Sequence record: OQ845957.1
Length of the DNA: 64,000 nucleotides
Strand: one strand, 5' to 3'
Origin: Escherichia phage pEC-M719-6WT.1
The translations under genes were made by a program, and so were the position numbers. Below are positions 8,734 through 45,837 of this stretch, piece after piece; within the stretch, counting starts at the first letter, position 1, and each line of letters starts with the position of its first letter. The notes beneath the pieces are model-generated. The model was given only the letters and a program-made list of their open reading frames with translations, was not told the DNA's origin and made no database searches.

Positions 8734-10086
8734 ATGTGGAATCCAATTGTTAATGTAGATATTACATTGAACACAGCAGGGACTACGAGAGAAGGTTTTG
8801 GACTGCCATTATTCTTAGCTTCAACAGATAACTTTGAAGAAAGAATTCGTGGTTATACTTCACTGACTGAAGTTGCCGAAGACTTTGATGAAAGTTCTGC
8901 TGCATACAAAGCTGCAAAACAGCTATGGAGTCAGACTCCAAAAGTAACTCAACTTTATATTGGTAGACGTTCTATGCAGTATACCGTTGCTGTTCCTGAT
9001 GCCGTTGCTGAGAGTACAGAATACTCTCTGACAGTTGCTGTAGGTGGTGGCGTATCTCAACCATTCCAGTACACAGCTAAGGCCGATGATACAGCCCTGA
9101 TTGTTCTAAATGAATTTAAAACTCAGATTGAAGCAAGCCCTGCTGTTAAAGATGGTGTTCAGGTCAATGTAACAGGTACTGGTGACTCAGCTACAATGCT
9201 TATCTCCAAAGCAGGTGATAATGATTTTGTAAAAGTTACTACAACTGGACAGACTCTTTCAATCTCTTCTACGACTGCTGACAGTGCTTCGACTGCCCTC
9301 TCTGCAATTGAAACGTACTCAACAGATTGGTACTTCATTGCTGCTGAAGACAGAACTTCACAGTTTGTCTTGGCGATGGCGTCTGAAATTCAGGCTCGTA
9401 AGAAGATTTTCTTCACAGCTAACGCTGATGTGAAAGCTCTACAAGGAACTGATTTAGCTTCTGCTACAGACGTACCAGCACAGCTTGCTAAATCCAAGTA
9501 CACTCGTACAGTCTGCTTGTGGCATCACACTGCTGAGTTTGATTACCCAGAAATGGCTTACATTGCTTATGGTGCTCCATATGATGCAGGTTCTATTGCA
9601 TGGGGTAACGCTCAGTTGACTGGTGTTGAAGCATCTTATCAGCCAGCTAACCAGAGACCTCTGACAAGCATTCAGAAATCTGCACTAGATGCACGTAGCT
9701 GTAACTTCATTGACCTTGATGGTGGTGTTCCGGTTGTGCGTAGAGGTATCACTTCAGGTGGGGAATGGATTGATATCGTTCGTGGTGTCGATTGGCTGAC
9801 TTCTGACTTGAAAACTTCTCTGAGAGACTTGCTAATTAATCAGAAGGGTGGTAAGATTACTTATGATGATACTGGTATTACTCGTATTCGTCAAGTCATT
9901 GAAACATCTCTTCAGAGAGCGGTTAACAGAAACTTTTTATCATCTTACACCGTTAATGTACCTAAAGCTTCTCAGGTTTCTTTAGCAGATAAGAAAGCAC
10001 GTATCCTGAAAGATATTACCTTCCACGGTATTATCGCAGGGGCTATCTTGGATGTTGACCTGAAAGGTACAGTGGCTTACGAATAA
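8734..10086 (+). CDS. Tail sheath protein
   Basis: 450 aa ORF immediately upstream of a ~150 aa tube-like ORF, chaperone pair and tape measure (P2-like order). Confidence 0.65.
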   Translation: MWNPIVNVDITLNTAGTTREGFGLPLFLASTDNFEERIRGYTSLTEVAEDFDESSAAYKAAKQLWSQTPKVTQLYIGRRSMQYTVAVPDAVAESTEYSLTVAVGGGVSQPFQYTAKADDTALIVLNEFKTQIEASPAVKDGVQVNVTGTGDSATMLISKAGDNDFVKVTTTGQTLSISSTTADSASTALSAIETYSTDWYFIAAEDRTSQFVLAMASEIQARKKIFFTANADVKALQGTDLASATDVPAQLAKSKYTRTVCLWHHTAEFDYPEMAYIAYGAPYDAGSIAWGNAQLTGVEASYQPANQRPLTSIQKSALDARSCNFIDLDGGVPVVRRGITSGGEWIDIVRGVDWLTSDLKTSLRDLLINQKGGKITYDDTGITRIRQVIETSLQRAVNRNFLSSYTVNVPKASQVSLADKKARILKDITFHGIIAGAILDVDLKGTVAYE

Positions 10087-10101
10087 TAGGAGTACTTTGG
10101 A

Positions 10102-10548
10102 ATGGCTATGTATCAGCAATATTCCCCTAAAGATGTAGTTTGTAGCTGGAATGGTATTGCCATTGAAGGCTTTGCTCCAGACTCTTTCCTACGTCTACAG
10201 AGAACGTCACCACTTGTTACACCAGTTGTTGGTGCAGGTGGTCAGGTAGCTCTGACAAGAAACGCAGATAAGACAGGTACTATTGAGATTGAGCTAATGC
10301 AGACCTCTCTATCTAACCAGATTCTTTCTGCGATTCAAGCTAAACAGGATGATATGGAACTTGAAGCAGATATCTCTTCTAACTTCGTAATCTATGACCC
10401 TTCAGGGTCTGTAATGGCAACTGGTATTAATGCTTGGTTGCAAGAACTTCCACAGGTTGAGTTAGGTCGTGACCAGAACTCTAAGACGTGGATTTTCGGA
10501 TGCGAACGTTTAGACTATACTTCTACAGTACCAGCGTCAAGCGTTTAA
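10102..10548 (+). CDS. Tail tube protein
   Basis: 148 aa ORF between sheath and chaperone genes; followed by strong terminator. Confidence 0.65.
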   Translation: MAMYQQYSPKDVVCSWNGIAIEGFAPDSFLRLQRTSPLVTPVVGAGGQVALTRNADKTGTIEIELMQTSLSNQILSAIQAKQDDMELEADISSNFVIYDPSGSVMATGINAWLQELPQVELGRDQNSKTWIFGCERLDYTSTVPASSV

Positions 10549-37660: not shown

Positions 37661-37879
37661 AACATTCTAAAGCGTTTGAAAAAGTATTTGGCGATTCACT
37701 GAAAGCAACTGCTGGTAAGTCTGCTGCACATTATGAAGCAAAGCGTGTTCGCACTGGTAAGACAGCACGTAAAGCAGCTAAGAAAGCTGCTTAAAAAGAT
37801 TTGACAAAGGAGTATGAAGTCTGTAACATTGTACTCCTTCAAGTTTGAAAGAAATAATTTTGAGAAAGAGGATTTAAGA

Positions 37880-38731
37880 ATGTCTAAAGTTGTTAAAATG
37901 AAATCTCCGGTAGAAAAATACAACGGTACTGAACGTCAGACTCTGCGTTACTTGCTGAAAGATGTTTGGTTCTACTACCTGAACACTATTCCACGTCCGG
38001 GAAAAGGTAAGTCAGTTGACAAGAAATTCCCAGGCAAAGACTGTAACTACAGCGTTTCGATTCTGGCAAAAGACGGTAACAAACTCTTCAAAGAGTTCAC
38101 CAAGTCTAAAAAGAATCCTGATGGTTGGGACAAGGTTACAACTGAAGCAGTTGATGCAGATGACTTCGAAGAGAAGTTTGGTTGCAAACCACCATTTGAA
38201 GCAGATACTTATCACATTCTGAAAGTAAGTCGTGCTGCTGCTTATAAAGATGGTGCAGTCTGGACAGCGAAACAGTCATTCCCTGTTATGCTGATTGAAG
38301 AAGTTAATGGTAAACGTGTTGCAGTTAAACAGCCGATGAAGAAAATCAAGGCTCAACATTCTGACAAACACGATGACGACAAAACTTATGATATTATTCA
38401 CCCAGATATCGCAGTCGGTAACGGTTCATTTGGTAGTGTGATTCTTGCAACTCACTTCTACACTTTTGAAAGCAACGTTCTGACGAAGCCGATTCAGGAA
38501 CAGTTTATCATTGATACTCTGGTTCCGTACACTGGTGGTACAGGTGGTAACGGTGAGCCTGAACTGGATGAAGATGAACTGGCTCTGCTTGGTCTGGATG
38601 GCGTTGAAGATAACGGTGAAATTACCGAAGAAGATGCGAAGGATTCTGAAGATACTAACTCTGACGATGACGACGATGATATGCCAGACCCAGATGACTA
38701 CGACGAAGAAGATTTCGATACTGAAGATTAA
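37880..38731 (+). CDS. Single-stranded DNA-binding protein (T7 gp2.5-like) with acidic C-terminal tail
   Basis: C-terminus DDDDDDMPDPDDYDEEDFDTED; GAGG RBS before this ATG; biased codon usage. Confidence 0.55.
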   Translation: MSKVVKMKSPVEKYNGTERQTLRYLLKDVWFYYLNTIPRPGKGKSVDKKFPGKDCNYSVSILAKDGNKLFKEFTKSKKNPDGWDKVTTEAVDADDFEEKFGCKPPFEADTYHILKVSRAAAYKDGAVWTAKQSFPVMLIEEVNGKRVAVKQPMKKIKAQHSDKHDDDKTYDIIHPDIAVGNGSFGSVILATHFYTFESNVLTKPIQEQFIIDTLVPYTGGTGGNGEPELDEDELALLGLDGVEDNGEITEEDAKDSEDTNSDDDDDDMPDPDDYDEEDFDTED

Positions 38732-38793
38732 TTCTCAGTAGTTACTACAAAGCCCTGTACTTAGTATGGGGCTTTTTCGTATTGGAGATACAA

Positions 38794-39834
38794 ATGGAAA
38801 AGTACACGTTAACAAAACTCCCAGATACTGTGACACATGTCTTTATTGACTCTGACAGCATCGCTTACAAGGGAGCCTGTGTCGTTGAGAAAGCAAAGTA
38901 CAAGTATGTGAATAAACTCACTGCTGAAGGGTCTGATGCCTTTGAAAGTGCTAAAGATGCTAATCAATGGCTATCTGACCAGAGAGTTCTGACAGAGGAA
39001 CTTGGTCTTGCATTCGATGAAGATGAATGGGAAAGACAATCTTGGAAAGAAGCAAAGAGTGAGAAAGAAGCTATTATGGCAACTCAACAAGTTCTTCAGG
39101 AATGGTTGAAAGTTGTCGGTAAAGAACGAACTTGGATGGGATACCTCACTGAGAAAGGTGTACATAAACACAAAGACATTAAAGGTCTTGAACACCAGTA
39201 TCAAGGTAACCGTAAAGAATCAGTAACCCCTACGCATTTAGTTGCTTGTCGTGAGTATCTTCTGTCACGACCTGAGTTTAAGCTTCTCAAAGGTGGCTTT
39301 GAAGCTGACTCCATTGTTATTGCAAAAGCTGAGAAGATGGGTAAGAAGGCTGCTCTTATGAGCATTGATAAAGACCTTCGCCAAGCGGAAGGAACTTACT
39401 GTATTGATATGACTTACGAGAAAGCCCCTCTTATTTTCATTGCAGATGGTAACGTAGGTAATATTTGGGATTGCCCTATCAAGTCTAAGCCGAAAGCTAA
39501 AAAGACTGTTGGTGTAGGCTTCAAATTCCTCTGCTATCAAGCTGTAGCAGGAGATAACGCAGATAACTACTTTGGCCTTAAGGGTGCAGGGAAAGTTGCT
39601 GTAATGAATGCTCTGGAAGGTAAAGAGACCTATAAAGAATGCCTTGATGCTATCTATGAACTTTACGCTAAGAAAGAGTCATACACTTATGAATCGTGGG
39701 ATGGTCAGGTGATTACAAGAACACCTCTTGAACTGATGCACCAGCACTTCTGGATTGCCTATCAAGAGCGTAACCCTAAAGATGATTTCACCTTTGCTAA
39801 ATATGGTTGGGAGCCTGTTATGAATGAAGATTAA
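38794..39834 (+). CDS. 5'-3' exonuclease / flap endonuclease (T7 gp6-like)
   Basis: VFIDSDSIAYKGA and SIDKDLRQ acidic motifs resembling FEN/gp6 metal-binding clusters; ORF track start at 38782 is TTG. Confidence 0.6.
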   Translation: MEKYTLTKLPDTVTHVFIDSDSIAYKGACVVEKAKYKYVNKLTAEGSDAFESAKDANQWLSDQRVLTEELGLAFDEDEWERQSWKEAKSEKEAIMATQQVLQEWLKVVGKERTWMGYLTEKGVHKHKDIKGLEHQYQGNRKESVTPTHLVACREYLLSRPEFKLLKGGFEADSIVIAKAEKMGKKAALMSIDKDLRQAEGTYCIDMTYEKAPLIFIADGNVGNIWDCPIKSKPKAKKTVGVGFKFLCYQAVAGDNADNYFGLKGAGKVAVMNALEGKETYKECLDAIYELYAKKESYTYESWDGQVITRTPLELMHQHFWIAYQERNPKDDFTFAKYGWEPVMNED

Positions 39835-40324
39835 AGGTTTTGGCAATTGCCCTGAATATGGACATTGGATTTCACTGTGCGGGGAGATTGACCCCGCTAA
39901 GTATTTTGGTTTCGTTTACTTAGTGTACTGCAAAAAGACTGGACAGTACTATTTGGGTAAGAAGCAGTTTAACAATGTCACCAAGAAGAAAGTAGCTGGA
40001 AAGACCAGACGTAAGATTGTGACAAAAGAGAGTGACTGGATGGTTTACCAGACCTCTTCTGAATACATTAAGAAAGATATTGAAACTTTCGGTGAAAAAG
40101 AGTTTGACTTCTATATTGTCCAAACTTATTATACGCGAGGTGGGTTGGTCTACGGAGAAGCTAACCTTCAGCATAAGTTTGACGTCATGACAAAAAGGAT
40201 TGACTCCAAGCTTCGACTCTTCTACAATGCAAACATTGCAGCAATCAAGTTTCTGACTAAAGAGACTTATGAAGATGCTGAGAAGAGAATCCATAAAATC
40301 ATGAAACTTAATGAGAGAGAATAA
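39824..40324 (+). CDS. GIY-YIG-like domain protein (possible nuclease)
   Basis: FVY-x10-YLG arrangement (FVYLVYCKKTGQYYLGKK). Confidence 0.4.
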   Translation: MKIKGFGNCPEYGHWISLCGEIDPAKYFGFVYLVYCKKTGQYYLGKKQFNNVTKKKVAGKTRRKIVTKESDWMVYQTSSEYIKKDIETFGEKEFDFYIVQTYYTRGGLVYGEANLQHKFDVMTKRIDSKLRLFYNANIAAIKFLTKETYEDAEKRIHKIMKLNERE

Positions 40325-40538
40325 TATGATATTTAACAAAATTAATAATGACCACGTAGCTAAGATTGACAGCCACATTGCAGCACTGAAAGATGCAATC
40401 GTAAAAGCGAAAGCAGCTACGGAGTCCGAAATGGAGGCTCTTGAGTCCCAGATTCAGCACCTGATTAACAAACGTGTTGAACTGAAAGGCCGACTGGATT
40501 ATATTGAGTCTCAGCAGAAACTGTTTCAGGAGGTTTAA
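40311..40538 (+). CDS. Small coiled-coil protein
   Basis: 75 aa ORF. Confidence 0.4.
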   Translation: MRENNMIFNKINNDHVAKIDSHIAALKDAIVKAKAATESEMEALESQIQHLINKRVELKGRLDYIESQQKLFQEV

Positions 40539-41293
40539 TGTTTAATTCCAGAGAATCCGTTTTAACTTGGAATCAGCGTTGTGGTAATACCCCGTTGACT
40601 CCTTATACACCTGAGTATTGGTCTTCAATGCATAGTCAAGCACTTTGCATGTTAGAAGAGGCAAAAGAGCTTTTGAAAGCCATTGATGAAAAAGACCCTA
40701 TTGAGGCTCTTGATGCTCAGGCAGATTTACAGTATGTTCTTGATGGACTGATTTACCTTTCACAGCATGACCATGACGGAGCTATGAAAGCAGTCTGTCA
40801 GAATAACAACCTGAAGTATACCGATAACTACGAAGAAGCTTTGAAGCGTCTTGCAGATATCGAGAAGCGTACTGGTGATGAATGTCGTGTACGTGCTTCA
40901 ATGATTGACGGAAAAGAATGGTACGCCATTGTCCGTGAATCTGATAAGAAGATTATGAAGCAGTCTAATCTTCCTAAAGTACAGCTTGCAGAGTTCATCG
41001 CGGAACTTGAAAGCAAAGAATTGTTCGTGGTAACATCTGACACATGTGTTATCTGTAAAGGTCTTGTAGGAAGTTTGAAAGACCTTGGATTGAGTGACTT
41101 CACAGAAGTTCGACCAATCAGTTCGAAAGCAGACAAAGACTTCTGCCGAGAAAACGGATTATGGCTTGCAGATATTGTTTACTATGACGGTGAGAAGTTC
41201 CATGTGACCTCATACCCGAAACTGAACTATGATGCAAATAACCTGAAGAATTGGTTAAAAGGGGTTGGTTATAATGGATTCACAGAACATTAA
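40538..41293 (+). CDS. MazG-like nucleotide pyrophosphohydrolase domain protein with C-terminal thioredoxin-fold-like region
   Basis: N-terminal LEEAKELL...DAQADLQYVLDG acidic-helix pattern; C-terminal CVIC and YYDGEKF motifs. Confidence 0.4.
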   Translation: MFNSRESVLTWNQRCGNTPLTPYTPEYWSSMHSQALCMLEEAKELLKAIDEKDPIEALDAQADLQYVLDGLIYLSQHDHDGAMKAVCQNNNLKYTDNYEEALKRLADIEKRTGDECRVRASMIDGKEWYAIVRESDKKIMKQSNLPKVQLAEFIAELESKELFVVTSDTCVICKGLVGSLKDLGLSDFTEVRPISSKADKDFCRENGLWLADIVYYDGEKFHVTSYPKLNYDANNLKNWLKGVGYNGFTEH

Positions 41294-41597
41294 TACTGAA
41301 GAGGTGGCTCCAAAGAGCCATTTCTCAAACTATAATCTCTCTATGACAGTGTTTATGAATGATTCACTGCTAGAGAAATATGGTGAGACTCCAGATACTA
41401 TTCTGGACAATGAGCAAGTCTTACGGGCAGTTCTTTACAAATATGGGCTAGATATTGATAAAGACTACTCTTATGAGATTTGTCAGCACAGAAACACTTT
41501 TGGTAAAGTTGTTCTGGCTCCACTATTCATGGGTGTTGAGCGCGTCGATGAACAGTGGACTTACTTAAAACGTAACTTGGATAGATACCATGTCTAA
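41265..41597 (+). CDS. Hypothetical protein
   Basis: 110 aa ORF. Confidence 0.45.
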   Translation: MVIMDSQNINTEEVAPKSHFSNYNLSMTVFMNDSLLEKYGETPDTILDNEQVLRAVLYKYGLDIDKDYSYEICQHRNTFGKVVLAPLFMGVERVDEQWTYLKRNLDRYHV

Positions 41598-41925
41598 AAC
41601 TAAAAAGTTGACAGTAGAAGAAATCAAATCGGGTGTTGAACTCGGTGTCGATAAGTTTGGAGAATCAATTCATTTCGGTGACTTTGTAATGTACACTCAG
41701 GACTGTAAAGGCCGTAGTAACATTTGCTTTGGTAGAGTTGTCTGTAAAGTTCGTGGTAACTTTGCAATAGCCAGAATTGATGACAACATTTACGAGAAGC
41801 TTGATAGGGTTATGGGTGAGAACTACGGATACTGGTATTGCAATGCAATGTCAAAAGGTTCTATCACCAAAGTCTCTCAGAAGTTTTATGAACTCTGGGA
41901 AAATAAAAAGATTTTTAGCATTTAA
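41590..41925 (+). CDS. Hypothetical protein
   Basis: 111 aa ORF. Confidence 0.45.
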   Translation: MSKTKKLTVEEIKSGVELGVDKFGESIHFGDFVMYTQDCKGRSNICFGRVVCKVRGNFAIARIDDNIYEKLDRVMGENYGYWYCNAMSKGSITKVSQKFYELWENKKIFSI

Positions 41926-41932
41926 TCTCTAA

Positions 41933-41957
41933 GGGGTCTCTTCGGAGACCCTTTTTC
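41933..41957 (+). terminator. Rho-independent terminator
   Basis: GGGGTCTC-TTCG-GAGACCC followed by TTTTTC. Confidence 0.75.
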
Positions 41958-41977
41958 ACCTGTAGGACTCTAAAATA

Positions 41978-44212
41978 ATGATTAAGACCATTCGCAAATC
42001 TGACGGTACAATCGTACCGTTCGAACCAGAACGTTTAAACAAATGGGCTTCATGGGCTGACAAACGAGGAATCATTTGGTCAGAAGTCACTATGGAAGCT
42101 ATGAAGCATATCTATGAAGGTTGCTCTACCAAAGAGATGCACCAAGCTATGATTGACGTTTGTATTGATAAGCAGACTCAAGAATACTCTGATATGGCTG
42201 GTCGATTACTTCTTGGTATCATCTACAAAGAAGCTTTTGGGGGTTTCACAAAAGTTCCTCAACTGTTTAACTTCGTCATGAAGATGGAGCAGATGGGTTT
42301 GTGGGAACACATGGATTACACTGAACAAGAGATTGACTATTTACAAGGTCACATTGTTCACTCAAAAGATATCTCTTACGGTTATGCAGTACTGAAACAG
42401 TTCCGTGACAAATACGGTATCCGAGATATCAAGTCAGGTCGTCTGTTTGAGTCTCCACAATTTATGTTTATGGGTATGGCTATGAAAGCCTTTGAGAGAC
42501 AACCTAAGCACCGTAGACTGGAAGATGTTATCAAACTGTACACTTACCTGTCTGACCTGAAGATTAACGCTCCTACGCCTTATCTGAATGGTTTACGTGC
42601 TACTAAGTCAGGTTATGCGTCATGTTGCTTAATCAAAGCTAATGACACTGCTGAGTCTCTTGGCATTGCTACTAAGGTAGCTTATGATATGACCACGAAG
42701 CAAGCTGGTATTGGTATGCTGATGGAGACCCGTACAATTGGTGACGGTATTCGTCAAAACACCATTGAACACATGGGTAAGCTGCCTTATTACAAGCTTG
42801 TACGTGCTGCTGTAGAGGCCAATAAGCAGAAGAGTCGTGGTGGTTCAGCTAACAACTTCTACACTGCCCTAGACCCGCAGATTGAAGATTTACTACGTTT
42901 GAAGCATCCTACAACGGTTCTTTCGAAGCGTATTAATGAGATGGACTATTCATTTGGTGCAAATGACTATTTCTGGCAGTGTGTGCAGTACGATACAGAT
43001 TGGTTGCTGTTCTCTTACAAGGACGCTCCAAAGCTTTATGACATGTTCTACACAGCATCTGCTGATGAGTTTGCTATGGCAGTTGGTCACGCAGTTCATT
43101 CAGGTGTTAAGCATAAGCGTGTTAAGGCTCGTGAAGTTGCCAAGCTGTTCATCCAGCAACGTTATGCTACAGGTCGTGTGTATCCGTTCTTTACGAACAA
43201 TGCAAACACTCACACACCGTTTAAAGAACCTTTGAAAATGTCTAACCTGTGTATGGAGATTGTATTGCCAGTTCATGGATTCGAAGATGAACGTGACCTT
43301 TACAGTTACACAGCACCTAAAGAAGATGGTGAAGTTGCTCTTTGCTTCTTGGCTAGTCTGGTAGCAGGGAGAATCACAGAAGATGAATACGCTGACGTTG
43401 CTTATTATGCTCTTGCAATGGTTGACTCCGTTATTGACCTTATGGACTATCCGTATCCGTCAATGCGTAACCACGTTCAGAAACGCCGTTCTGTTGGGAT
43501 TGGCCTTACGAATGTGGCTCACTACCTTGCGAAGAACTACGTGAACTATTCTTCAAGAGCAGGTAAAACGAGACTGCATGAACTTGCAGAGATGCACTCT
43601 TACTATCTGCATGAGGCATCATTAAGACTTGCAAAAGAACGTGGTGTACCTGAGTATATGCAGTTCACCAAGTATCCTGAAGGTTGGGTTCCTCCGAAGA
43701 CAGCTAACAGGAAGATTGATACAAAACACGATGCAAAACTTCGTTATGATTGGGATGACTTAGCAGACCGTATTAAGGCAAACGGTGGTATCAGAAACTC
43801 TGTGCTTGAGGCTTACATGCCTAACGAGAGTTCTTCACTGGCAACTAATACAACAAACGGTTTGTACCCAATTCGTGACTTCATCTTAACCAAGAAGTCA
43901 GCAACTGGTAACGTACTGTTTATCGTTCCAGACTACGAAGAGTTGAAGTATATCTATGAAATTGCTTGGGATATTGACACCTTTGATATGATTGATTGCT
44001 ATGCAATTGTTCAAAAATTCACTGGTCAAGCTATCTCTTCAGATTTCTATGTTGACTATTCAAAATCAAAAAAGGTATCATTAGAGCAAGCTTTGAAGTA
44101 CATGATTTATGCTAACTCAGTTGGGATGAAAACTATGTACTACCTTAACAGTCGTATTGGTGTTGGTAAGTCAGCACTTCAAGATGCTTACTGTGAAGGT
44201 TGTGGCGTTTAA
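41978..44212 (+). CDS. nrdA: Ribonucleotide reductase class Ia alpha subunit
   Basis: 744 aa; N-terminal ATP-cone-like region, C-terminal CxxC tail (CEGCGV), typical NrdA length. Confidence 0.85.
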   Translation: MIKTIRKSDGTIVPFEPERLNKWASWADKRGIIWSEVTMEAMKHIYEGCSTKEMHQAMIDVCIDKQTQEYSDMAGRLLLGIIYKEAFGGFTKVPQLFNFVMKMEQMGLWEHMDYTEQEIDYLQGHIVHSKDISYGYAVLKQFRDKYGIRDIKSGRLFESPQFMFMGMAMKAFERQPKHRRLEDVIKLYTYLSDLKINAPTPYLNGLRATKSGYASCCLIKANDTAESLGIATKVAYDMTTKQAGIGMLMETRTIGDGIRQNTIEHMGKLPYYKLVRAAVEANKQKSRGGSANNFYTALDPQIEDLLRLKHPTTVLSKRINEMDYSFGANDYFWQCVQYDTDWLLFSYKDAPKLYDMFYTASADEFAMAVGHAVHSGVKHKRVKAREVAKLFIQQRYATGRVYPFFTNNANTHTPFKEPLKMSNLCMEIVLPVHGFEDERDLYSYTAPKEDGEVALCFLASLVAGRITEDEYADVAYYALAMVDSVIDLMDYPYPSMRNHVQKRRSVGIGLTNVAHYLAKNYVNYSSRAGKTRLHELAEMHSYYLHEASLRLAKERGVPEYMQFTKYPEGWVPPKTANRKIDTKHDAKLRYDWDDLADRIKANGGIRNSVLEAYMPNESSSLATNTTNGLYPIRDFILTKKSATGNVLFIVPDYEELKYIYEIAWDIDTFDMIDCYAIVQKFTGQAISSDFYVDYSKSKKVSLEQALKYMIYANSVGMKTMYYLNSRIGVGKSALQDAYCEGCGV

Positions 44213-44250: not shown

Positions 44251-44525
44251 TGTTAGAACTCATTCAAGATGCAAGGAGCAGAGAACCAAACTGTGCTTTG
44301 TATCTGTATTATATTCCAAGGGAGTCTCTATATTATATCGCAGACTATCACCTGAAAGTTAAAATGCCAGATGGTTCTTGGAAAGAGCATCTCCGTTACA
44401 TTGATTGCTTTAATCCAAGCAACACTTATGCAAGGTCTCTTGACATGTTTAAAGTTGACCGTTGGCAAGTTTTAACAGCGTCAGAAGCCAGAGAATTTTA
44501 TGAAACAGGAAACCTACCATTATGA
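44250..44525 (+). CDS. Hypothetical protein
   Basis: 91 aa ORF between nrdA and nrdB. Confidence 0.45.
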   Translation: MLELIQDARSREPNCALYLYYIPRESLYYIADYHLKVKMPDGSWKEHLRYIDCFNPSNTYARSLDMFKVDRWQVLTASEAREFYETGNLPL

Positions 44526-45595
44526 TTAACCAACATCCAATCTTTTTAGGCGGTGAGCGAAAAACTTTTGACTCACTCAACAAACACTATCCAAAAATCT
44601 TTGAACTGTACAAACAGCAGAAAGCACAAGACTGGTCTGAAGATGAGTTCCCATTTGAGCAGTCACGATTAGATTTTGAAAGTGTTCCAGAATCAATGTC
44701 TGGTGTAATGCTTGAGATTCTTAAGTGGCAGTGGGAAGCTGATACACAGGTTGCTAAGAGTTTGGCATTTGCTTTTGCACCATTCATCTCTGATGATATC
44801 TACGCAACGGCAATTATGAAGCAATCTGAAATTGAGAACCTTCATGCCTTAACTTATTCAGAGATTGTTCGTCAGTGTATTAAGAATCCTGAAACAATCC
44901 TTGATGAGATTAACCAGAATGCTGCTGTACAAGACCGTCTGAAGACTGTGAACAGAGCACTGGAAGAACTACTTGACGAAGGTATCAACTATCGTCTAAG
45001 TTATGTTCGTGATTCACTGCTTGATAAAGACCCTTTACACTTCCACAAAGTGATTTTGAAAGGTCTCTTTGCAGTAACAGCCTTGGAAGGTGTATCCTTT
45101 ATGGCATCCTTTGCATGTACCTTTGCACTTGATGCACAAGATAAGTTCCAAGGTATTGCTCAGGCAGTACAGAAAATTATGCTTGATGAAATCCTTCACA
45201 CGAAGATTGACATTGAAGCACTGAAAGAGACTTTGAAAGATGAAGAATGGCAAGAAGCTTTCCGTCAGGTTCTTCCAGAAATCAAAGTAATTCTTGATGA
45301 AGTAGTTGAAAGTGAAGAGAAATGGTCTTATTATATTTTCTCTGAAGGTCGTGCCGTAGTTGGTTTGAATACAAAACTTCTGCATGAGTGGGTTTACTAT
45401 AATGCTGCACCATTGTATGATATGTTTGGTATTCCAAGAGACTTCGTAGCTCCTAAAGAACCACCTTTGAAATACATGATTAAGAAGATGGAAATTGACA
45501 AAGAGCAGAATGCTAACCAAGAGCAACAAAACGGTGCGTACTTGTTGAATACCGTTGTAGATGATTTAAACTCAGGATATTTAGAGGTTCCTTAA
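44522..45595 (+). CDS. nrdB: Ribonucleotide reductase class Ia beta subunit
   Basis: 357 aa; ferritin-like di-iron pattern (E...EILH), position directly after nrdA. Confidence 0.85.
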   Translation: MINQHPIFLGGERKTFDSLNKHYPKIFELYKQQKAQDWSEDEFPFEQSRLDFESVPESMSGVMLEILKWQWEADTQVAKSLAFAFAPFISDDIYATAIMKQSEIENLHALTYSEIVRQCIKNPETILDEINQNAAVQDRLKTVNRALEELLDEGINYRLSYVRDSLLDKDPLHFHKVILKGLFAVTALEGVSFMASFACTFALDAQDKFQGIAQAVQKIMLDEILHTKIDIEALKETLKDEEWQEAFRQVLPEIKVILDEVVESEEKWSYYIFSEGRAVVGLNTKLLHEWVYYNAAPLYDMFGIPRDFVAPKEPPLKYMIKKMEIDKEQNANQEQQNGAYLLNTVVDDLNSGYLEVP

Positions 45596-45837
45596 TGACT
45601 TACGTAATTTACTCCAAAACTGGTTGCCCTCAGTGCGAAACTGCAAAGAACTTTGCGAAGGCTCGTGGTATTGACCACGTTGTAAGAATGTTGGGGCAGG
45701 ATTATGAACTGTCAGACCTGATGGATATTGCACAGATGCCAGTTCGTCAGATGCCATTCATCATGAAGACTGACGACACTGTTCTGACTCCGGTTGGAAC
45801 ACTACAAAACTTTATGGCAGAGGTGAACAATACTTAA
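45595..45837 (+). CDS. nrdH: Glutaredoxin/NrdH-like redoxin
   Basis: 80 aa; CPQC active-site motif at residues 11-14. Confidence 0.7.
   Translation: MTYVIYSKTGCPQCETAKNFAKARGIDHVVRMLGQDYELSDLMDIAQMPVRQMPFIMKTDDTVLTPVGTLQNFMAEVNNT

Follow-up and report, generated by a model that had tools for sequence, protein, structure and literature searches.

Felix O1-like phages are widely used in typing of Salmonella and E. coli, in biocontrol, and in therapy, and the "MazG-like" gene of these phages has been annotated from its first 90 residues only. What is the rest of this protein, and why should it be attached to a nucleotide pyrophosphohydrolase? We addressed this question in Escherichia phage pEC-M719-6WT.1 (sequence record OQ845957.1), using a stretch of 64,000 nucleotides, called the window below, to which all coordinates refer. 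A preliminary description of the window had proposed a MazG-like pyrophosphohydrolase domain apparently fused to a thioredoxin-fold-like region, and our analysis upholds this architecture; the predicted thioredoxin-fold CxxC module makes up a third of the protein and corrects the existing annotation. The gene family is known and has been deposited hundreds of times, and the gene itself is not new. What is new, at the level of an annotation discovery, is a MazG-type pyrophosphohydrolase with a lineage-restricted CxxC thioredoxin-fold domain that lacks the cis-proline. Our literature searches found no description of a MazG-thioredoxin-fold architecture and no functional data on the protein, whose only mention there concerned mutations gained by the mazG-like gene of Felixounavirus P10 (PMC13155118). 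The narrow distribution limits the generality of the finding, which is not a surprise on the scale of a new system.

A two-domain gene conserved in Felix O1-like phages

The fusion gene occupies 40538..41293 (+), starts with ATG, and encodes a two-domain protein of 251 amino acids, a MazG-like pyrophosphohydrolase followed by a thioredoxin-fold domain, as delimited by the open reading frame list, the match to PHROG 2144, and tblastn. The reading frame and all the sequence strings quoted in the preliminary description were located exactly: EEAKELL corresponds to residues 40 to 46, DAQADLQYVLDG to residues 59 to 70, CVIC to residues 170 to 173, and DIVYYDGEKF to residues 212 to 221. A Shine-Dalgarno sequence, AGGAGG, can be read at 40528..40533 (+), 4 nucleotides ahead of the ATG, and the start codon overlaps the stop codon of the upstream 75-residue open reading frame in the sequence TAATG. 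Scanning for promoters and terminators around the gene revealed nothing above expectation, with 22 promoter-like sites against 19.1 ± 5.0 in shuffled sequences.

By megablast, the region 39800 to 42000 of the window is 92 to 94% identical to Salmonella phage PC79-13 and Escherichia phages SUSP1 and SUSP2, and 80 to 83% identical to many Felixounavirus and Mooglevirus genomes; by these matches the source phage is a Felix O1-like member of the Ounavirinae, SUSP-like (Suspvirus). The whole protein matches PHROG 2144, "MazG-like pyrophosphatase," over its full length (E = 2e-94), and members of this PHROG are annotated in Felixounavirus, Suspvirus, Mooglevirus, and Kolesnikvirus genomes. Many deposited phage proteins of the family are 77 to 98% identical to ours. 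Full-length fusion proteins were found by tblastn in 301 phage records, the lowest identities (37 to 40%) being those of Erwinia phages of the genus Kolesnikvirus, and the homologues are labeled "MazG-like pyrophosphatase," "phosphoribosyl-ATP pyrophosphohydrolase," or "hypothetical protein." Current annotation of PHROG 2144 covers the N-terminal domain only; Pfam, NCBIfam, and PHROGs all leave the C-terminal 90 residues (profile positions 198 to 290) without a label. Compared with SUSP2 and garuso, both domains gave dN/dS values of 0.08 to 0.14; both are under purifying selection of similar strength.

The N-terminal half is a MazG/HisE-type domain

The N-terminal domain (residues 1 to 150; 40538..40987, +) was delimited by the PF01503 match, the predicted helices, and the alignment of a shorter relative, P0065, to residues 1 to 155. 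The Pfam PRA-PH profile (PF01503) matches residues 12 to 86 with an E value of 5e-7 and 30.4 bits, above the gathering cutoff of 21.3, and PHROGs 671, 37824, and 715, which are labeled MazG-like or nucleotide pyrophosphohydrolase, also match the N-terminal part. In the AlphaFold2 model, helices are predicted at residues 25 to 50, 54 to 76, 79 to 93, and 98 to 112 and strands at 116 to 123 and 126 to 133, with a helix and β-hairpin extension spanning residues 94 to 140.

The acidic metal-binding residues are intact. In the alignments A1 and A4, which comprise the fusion proteins and stand-alone relatives of 134 to 140 residues, the acidic motif E40-E41-x-x-E44 of helix 1 (40655..40669, +), the predicted metal ligands, is invariant; in the D59-x-x-x-D63 motif of helix 2 (40712..40726, +), D63 is invariant and D59 nearly so. 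This acidic metal-binding set on two adjacent helices, EExxE ... (E/D)xxxD, is conserved in fusions and stand-alone relatives alike, as are N90, K93, and the R..D.K..K hairpin. The EExxE and DxxxD motifs and the NNxxK helix are common to the fusion protein and the all-alpha NTP pyrophosphohydrolases (MazG, HisE/PRA-PH of PF01503, DR2231, and the dimeric dUTPases), and the C-terminal hairpin, of the form DGK..v.R.sDgKi.K, is shared with the stand-alone phage and bacterial relatives. However, those relatives end after the hairpin, whereas the fusion protein goes on to the thioredoxin-fold domain and also contains an insertion of about 27 residues (helix 98 to 112 plus a strand). MazG structures were not among the matches listed in fold searches with the full model, where generic helical bundles and thioredoxins crowded the list, and the PDB profile matches of the domain to HisE, 3nl9, and DR2231 are weak. 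On the strength of profiles and motif conservation, we assign the domain to the all-alpha MazG/HisE-type NTP pyrophosphohydrolases, an assignment that is secure at the superfamily level and agrees with the domain first suspected here.

One further residue of this domain deserves mention. C87, in the V-C-x-N-N-x-x-K helix (residues 80 to 93; 40776..40816), is conserved in almost all fusion proteins; the position holds Gln in the stand-alone relatives, Leu in P0065, and Ser in the fusion member P0064. We considered an intramolecular redox switch between C87 and the CxxC pair, and the Ser of P0064 weakens this idea, which cannot be general.

A predicted thioredoxin fold tethered to the C terminus

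The two domains are joined by a linker (residues 151 to 159; 40988..41014, +), the site at which P0065 ends. The predicted local confidence (pLDDT) falls below 50 at residues 154 to 158, and pTM drops from 0.79 when the C-terminal domain is modeled alone to 0.41 when both domains are modeled; together these values suggest that the linker would act as a flexible tether.

The C-terminal domain (residues 160 to 245; 41015..41272, +) is predicted to adopt a minimal thioredoxin fold. Its elements follow the order β1 (161 to 165), α1 (171 to 182), β2 (189 to 191), α2 (197 to 205), β3 (212 to 216), β4 (221 to 225), and α3 (233 to 242) in the model, and this complete β1-α1-β2-α2-β3-β4-α3 topology, with the CxxC at the start of α1, is superimposable on solved members of the thioredoxin fold. 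The DIVYY and FHVTS strings form the predicted strands β3 and β4, and the top Foldseek matches include structures of NrdH. The model was built on a shallow alignment of 11 to 13 sequences. Searches with the C-terminal half against Pfam (E ≤ 10), NCBIfam, and PHROGs, and by phmmer and hmmsearch against PDB sequences, returned no significant match, the best PDB profile scores being those of Grx3 (E = 0.44) and 2fgx (E = 0.39), neither significant; PHROG 22, which recognizes the phage's own glutaredoxin, was not matched either. The likeness to glutaredoxin folds first noticed in this region is supported by the size of the predicted fold and the position of the CxxC. It seems near-certain from the model that, as an architecture, the C-terminal 85 residues or so form a glutaredoxin-sized thioredoxin fold.

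The CxxC motif lacks the hallmarks of canonical redoxins

C170-V-I-C173 lies at the N terminus of helix α1 (41045..41056, +), and neither cysteine varies in any cluster of the family, even at domain identities of about 29 to 36%. The dipeptide between them varies widely (VI, II, AI, EI, FI, SM, TQ, SL, TL, and TK), giving a family motif of C-[VIAEFST]-[ILMQK]-C. A cis-Pro loop is almost universal in CxxC proteins of the thioredoxin fold, where it takes part in the binding and release of substrates and shields the thiolates from metals (PMC2665069). Judged by the register of secondary-structure elements in the models, the equivalent position, just before β3, appears to be A211 (41168..41170, +). 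All members have A, G, or S at this site, and the α2-β3 loop and β3 are free of proline in every family member examined.

Other redoxin signatures were sought in the same domain. No CPYC, TVP, or GGxD/GSH-binding motif of glutaredoxins was found, the sequence reading YYDGEKFHVTSYP. NrdH redoxins are marked by a C-[VM]-Q-C active site, typically CVQC, and by the WSGFRP[DE] motif, and nothing like the latter was found in the C-domain family. Compared with glutaredoxins, NrdH, and small thioredoxin-like proteins of solved structure (cGrx1, 7c10; BC3987, 3zij; XcR50, 1xpv; Mycobacterium tuberculosis NrdH, 4hs1; and E. coli NrdH, 1h75), the domain thus lacks not only these motifs but also significant profile similarity and any free-standing occurrence, and its dipeptide is variable. 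It has the size of a glutaredoxin or NrdH redoxin fold and the CxxC in the right place, yet by these features it belongs to neither group, and it lacks one hallmark of the redox-active superfamily. The loss of the cis-Pro together with a freely varying dipeptide is unusual for a tuned oxidoreductase.

The module is confined to the MazG fusion

An exhaustive search of 1.84 billion representative sequences with a profile of the C-domain recovered only six clusters at 50% identity, all of 244 to 251 residues with the domain at the C terminus; among these representatives, the domain was found neither standing alone nor in any other fusion. Four further matches (P0027 to P0030) are long repeat proteins aligned over several short stretches and were treated as spurious; P0028, the one that we read, is a tandem-repeat protein.

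The MazG core, on the other hand, can exist without the C-domain, which is not known without the core. P0065 is a relative of 158 residues that consists of the MazG part only (E = 1e-37 to the family profile; BLASTP E = 3e-24 over residues 1 to 155); it keeps the core and the insertion and ends exactly at the linker. Because the domain occurs nowhere else in the 1.84 billion representatives and a MazG-only relative is at hand, the thioredoxin-fold module is, as far as these sequences tell, a lineage-specific accessory in the Ounavirinae, added to a MazG core that exists without it. Gene fission, with the thioredoxin domain as the next gene, was ruled out for P0065, since the gene that follows it (L008, 1422..1685, 87 residues) is a homologue of the small open reading frame at 41265..41597 of the window (BLASTP E = 2e-13). 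The MazG core and this small open reading frame may form a conserved gene pair. The other neighbors of P0065 differ from those in the window, a DNA ligase following there rather than nrdA.

We also asked whether the module could be a copy of the phage's own glutaredoxin and rejected this origin: BLASTP gave no alignment, hhalign aligned 24 columns at a probability of 6.6%, and a global alignment scored z = 1.2 against shuffled sequences in a meaningless register.

The fusion gene lies ahead of the ribonucleotide reductase genes

The fusion gene lies in the nucleotide-metabolism block, in a region of about 40% GC. The gene order is exonuclease, SegE-type endonuclease, 75-residue coiled-coil open reading frame, fusion gene, two small open reading frames, nrdA, an open reading frame, nrdB, glutaredoxin, and nrdD. 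The exonuclease occupies 38782..39834 (+). Immediately downstream of the fusion gene, a small open reading frame of 110 residues assigned to PHROG 4007 (41265..41597, +) starts within the 3' end of the fusion gene. The nrdA gene for the large subunit of class I ribonucleotide reductase (RNR) lies at 41978..44212 (+), according to its translation and the annotation of homologous loci, and nrdB for the small subunit at 44522..45595 (+), from the annotated context. NrdA ends in ...YCEGCGV (44180..44212, +), a C-terminal CxxC tail; in class I RNR, tails of this type pass reducing equivalents from redoxins on to the active site.

A canonical glutaredoxin of 80 residues follows (45595..45837, +), its start sharing the last base of nrdB (45595). 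It has the C11-P-Q-C14 active site and the cis-Pro loop QMP54F and matches PF00462 (E = 4e-7) and PHROG 22, "thioredoxin domain" (E = 8e-14). All genomes checked have this glutaredoxin beside nrdB together with the fusion, the divergent carriers L005 and L007 included, and its identity between genomes is 51 to 70% where that of the fused domain reaches only 29 to 38%. The carrier contigs that we inspected are collinear, Ounavirinae-like genomes.

Proposed role of the fusion protein

The MazG part would most likely convert (d)NTP to (d)NMP and PPi, and may thereby trim or clean the dNTP pool during replication of the phage genome of about 40% GC. The preliminary description had mentioned degradation of alarmones or modified nucleotides as a proposed function of phage MazG proteins. 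We favor a dNTP-pool role over alarmone degradation because of the position among dNTP-synthesis genes, the GC content of about 40%, and the experimentally shown specificity of a cyanophage MazG, which prefers dGTP and dCTP and does not hydrolyze (p)ppGpp (PMC6850273). The analogy is partial: both enzymes are phage encoded, and the cyanophage protein, for which a dNTP-pool role has been proposed in a phage whose GC content is below that of the host, is a single-domain member of a different MazG subfamily without a thioredoxin-fold appendage (PMC6850273).

For the C-domain, we infer that the likeliest role is that of an accessory thiol or metal module on a dNTP-pool enzyme. The CxxC module would make and break a disulfide, or dock on a partner that carries a dithiol, for instance the CxxC tail of NrdA. 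In this way, how active the pyrophosphohydrolase is, or where it acts, would be linked to the redox state or the machinery of phage dNTP synthesis. Taking the fusion architecture and the role as one package, we give a probability of roughly 45% to an accessory thiol module that regulates the pyrophosphohydrolase or localizes it relative to RNR and the dNTP machinery; within the package, the architecture is near-certain and the mechanism weak. If the module does regulate or localize the enzyme, it would illustrate in compact form how redox can control a dNTP-pool enzyme of a virus and what becomes of a thioredoxin fold once the cis-proline is lost; if it is only a second redoxin, the gain would be a modest improvement of annotation.

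A metal or iron-sulfur module, rather than a disulfide oxidoreductase, is unlikely but has definite points in its favor. MazG/HisE-type enzymes are obligate dimers or tetramers, and such oligomers would bring two tethered CxxC domains together; the two CxxC motifs of a dimer might then share a Zn ion or a [2Fe-2S] cluster, which would stabilize the oligomer or render it sensitive to O2 or iron. The absence of the cis-Pro from every member would suit metal binding, and an unconstrained dipeptide fits a ligand role better than a tuned redox potential. Nevertheless, each chain has two conserved cysteines only, the domain has no further conserved His or Cys (C203 is Ala in several members), and a CxxC at the N terminus of α1 is a hallmark of redox activity.

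Another reading is that the fused domain serves the class I RNR of the phage as its own hydrogen donor and reduces the CxxC tail of NrdA. In all Ounavirinae-like genomes, nrdA follows shortly after the fusion gene, NrdA ends in CEGCGV, the fold has the size of a glutaredoxin or NrdH and draws NrdH structures in Foldseek, and CVIC resembles the CVQC of NrdH. A glutaredoxin fused to NrdB works as RNR reductant in Facklamia ignava (PMC6187632), a precedent that shares with the phage protein the covalent attachment of a small dithiol module of redoxin fold to a dNTP-metabolism enzyme; there, however, the partner is RNR itself and the glutaredoxin is canonical and experimentally active, whereas the phage partner is a pyrophosphohydrolase and its redoxin atypical and predicted. 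Against a donor role, every genome checked has the better conserved canonical glutaredoxin right after nrdB, to which the task of reducing RNR was already given in the Felix O1 genome paper (PMC3185647), while the cis-Pro loop, WSGFRP, and GSH-binding motifs are all missing from the fused domain. Nor does synteny with nrdA add independent evidence, given that every carrier is an Ounavirinae-like genome collinear with the others. Since the canonical glutaredoxin always accompanies nrdB and the fused domain lacks the substrate-holding cis-Pro loop, the latter is probably not the principal RNR reductant. We regard the dedicated donor, with a MazG fusion that simply colocalizes two activities of the dNTP pathway, as distinctly unlikely.

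The accessory thiol module that we prefer also has a bolder form, which is a long shot: the cis-Pro-less CxxC domain may represent a new, phage-restricted class of redoxin-like sensors that turns a dNTP pyrophosphohydrolase on or off as the redox state of the infected cell changes. The switch might be a reversible disulfide or, as part of the same speculative proposal, a metal or Fe-S bridge between the two tails of a MazG dimer. Were this true, trimming of the dNTP pool would be coupled to RNR turnover or to oxidative or defense responses of the host.

Many thioredoxin-fold domains are noncatalytic, and the C-domain could likewise be a redox-inert binding or scaffold adaptor, for example for a host factor or a target in defense or counterdefense, with structural cysteines. 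The fusion protein is 29 to 54% identical between genomes in which NrdA is 71 to 80% identical, and faster evolution is typical of host-interaction proteins; moreover, the mazG-like gene of Felixounavirus P10 gained mutations during experimental coevolution with hosts (PMC13155118). However, both cysteines are strictly invariant amid a divergent domain, which argues for a chemical role, and a dN/dS of about 0.13 indicates purifying rather than diversifying selection; we regard such an adaptor as quite improbable. That the C-terminal half has no thioredoxin fold at all, being an unrelated α/β region in which AlphaFold overinterprets a shallow alignment of 11 to 13 sequences, is very improbable, even though no profile, from Pfam and PHROG 22 to the PDB (E of about 0.4) and hhalign (6.6%), reaches significance.

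Other features of the region

Several observations on neighboring genes were made in passing. The SegE-type GIY-YIG endonuclease (39824..40324, +; 166 residues; Pfam PF19835, E = 2.5e-26) has homologues labeled "NAD synthetase" in several RefSeq or derived records (SUSP2, phiSUSP1, Moogle, Mordin, and Erwinia phages), and this label looks like a propagated misannotation. The small open reading frame downstream of the fusion gene (41265..41597) also matches phrog_3506 (115 positions, "thymidylate synthase") with an E value of 2e-11; the protein is too small for this label, which is implausible. On L005, which carries the fusion protein P0026, a D12-class N6-adenine DNA methyltransferase (PF02086) is encoded at 9440..10252, between the small open reading frames and nrdA; it is absent from the matching position in the window. 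Finally, upstream of the exonuclease, an open reading frame of 305 residues (37814..38731, +) encodes a protein whose C-terminal tail (...DSEDTNSDDDDDDMPDPDDYDEEDFDTED) is extremely acidic and resembles the acidic tails found on single-stranded-DNA-binding proteins of phages, and the frame is followed at 38749 to 38775 by a terminator-like hairpin with a 12-bp stem.
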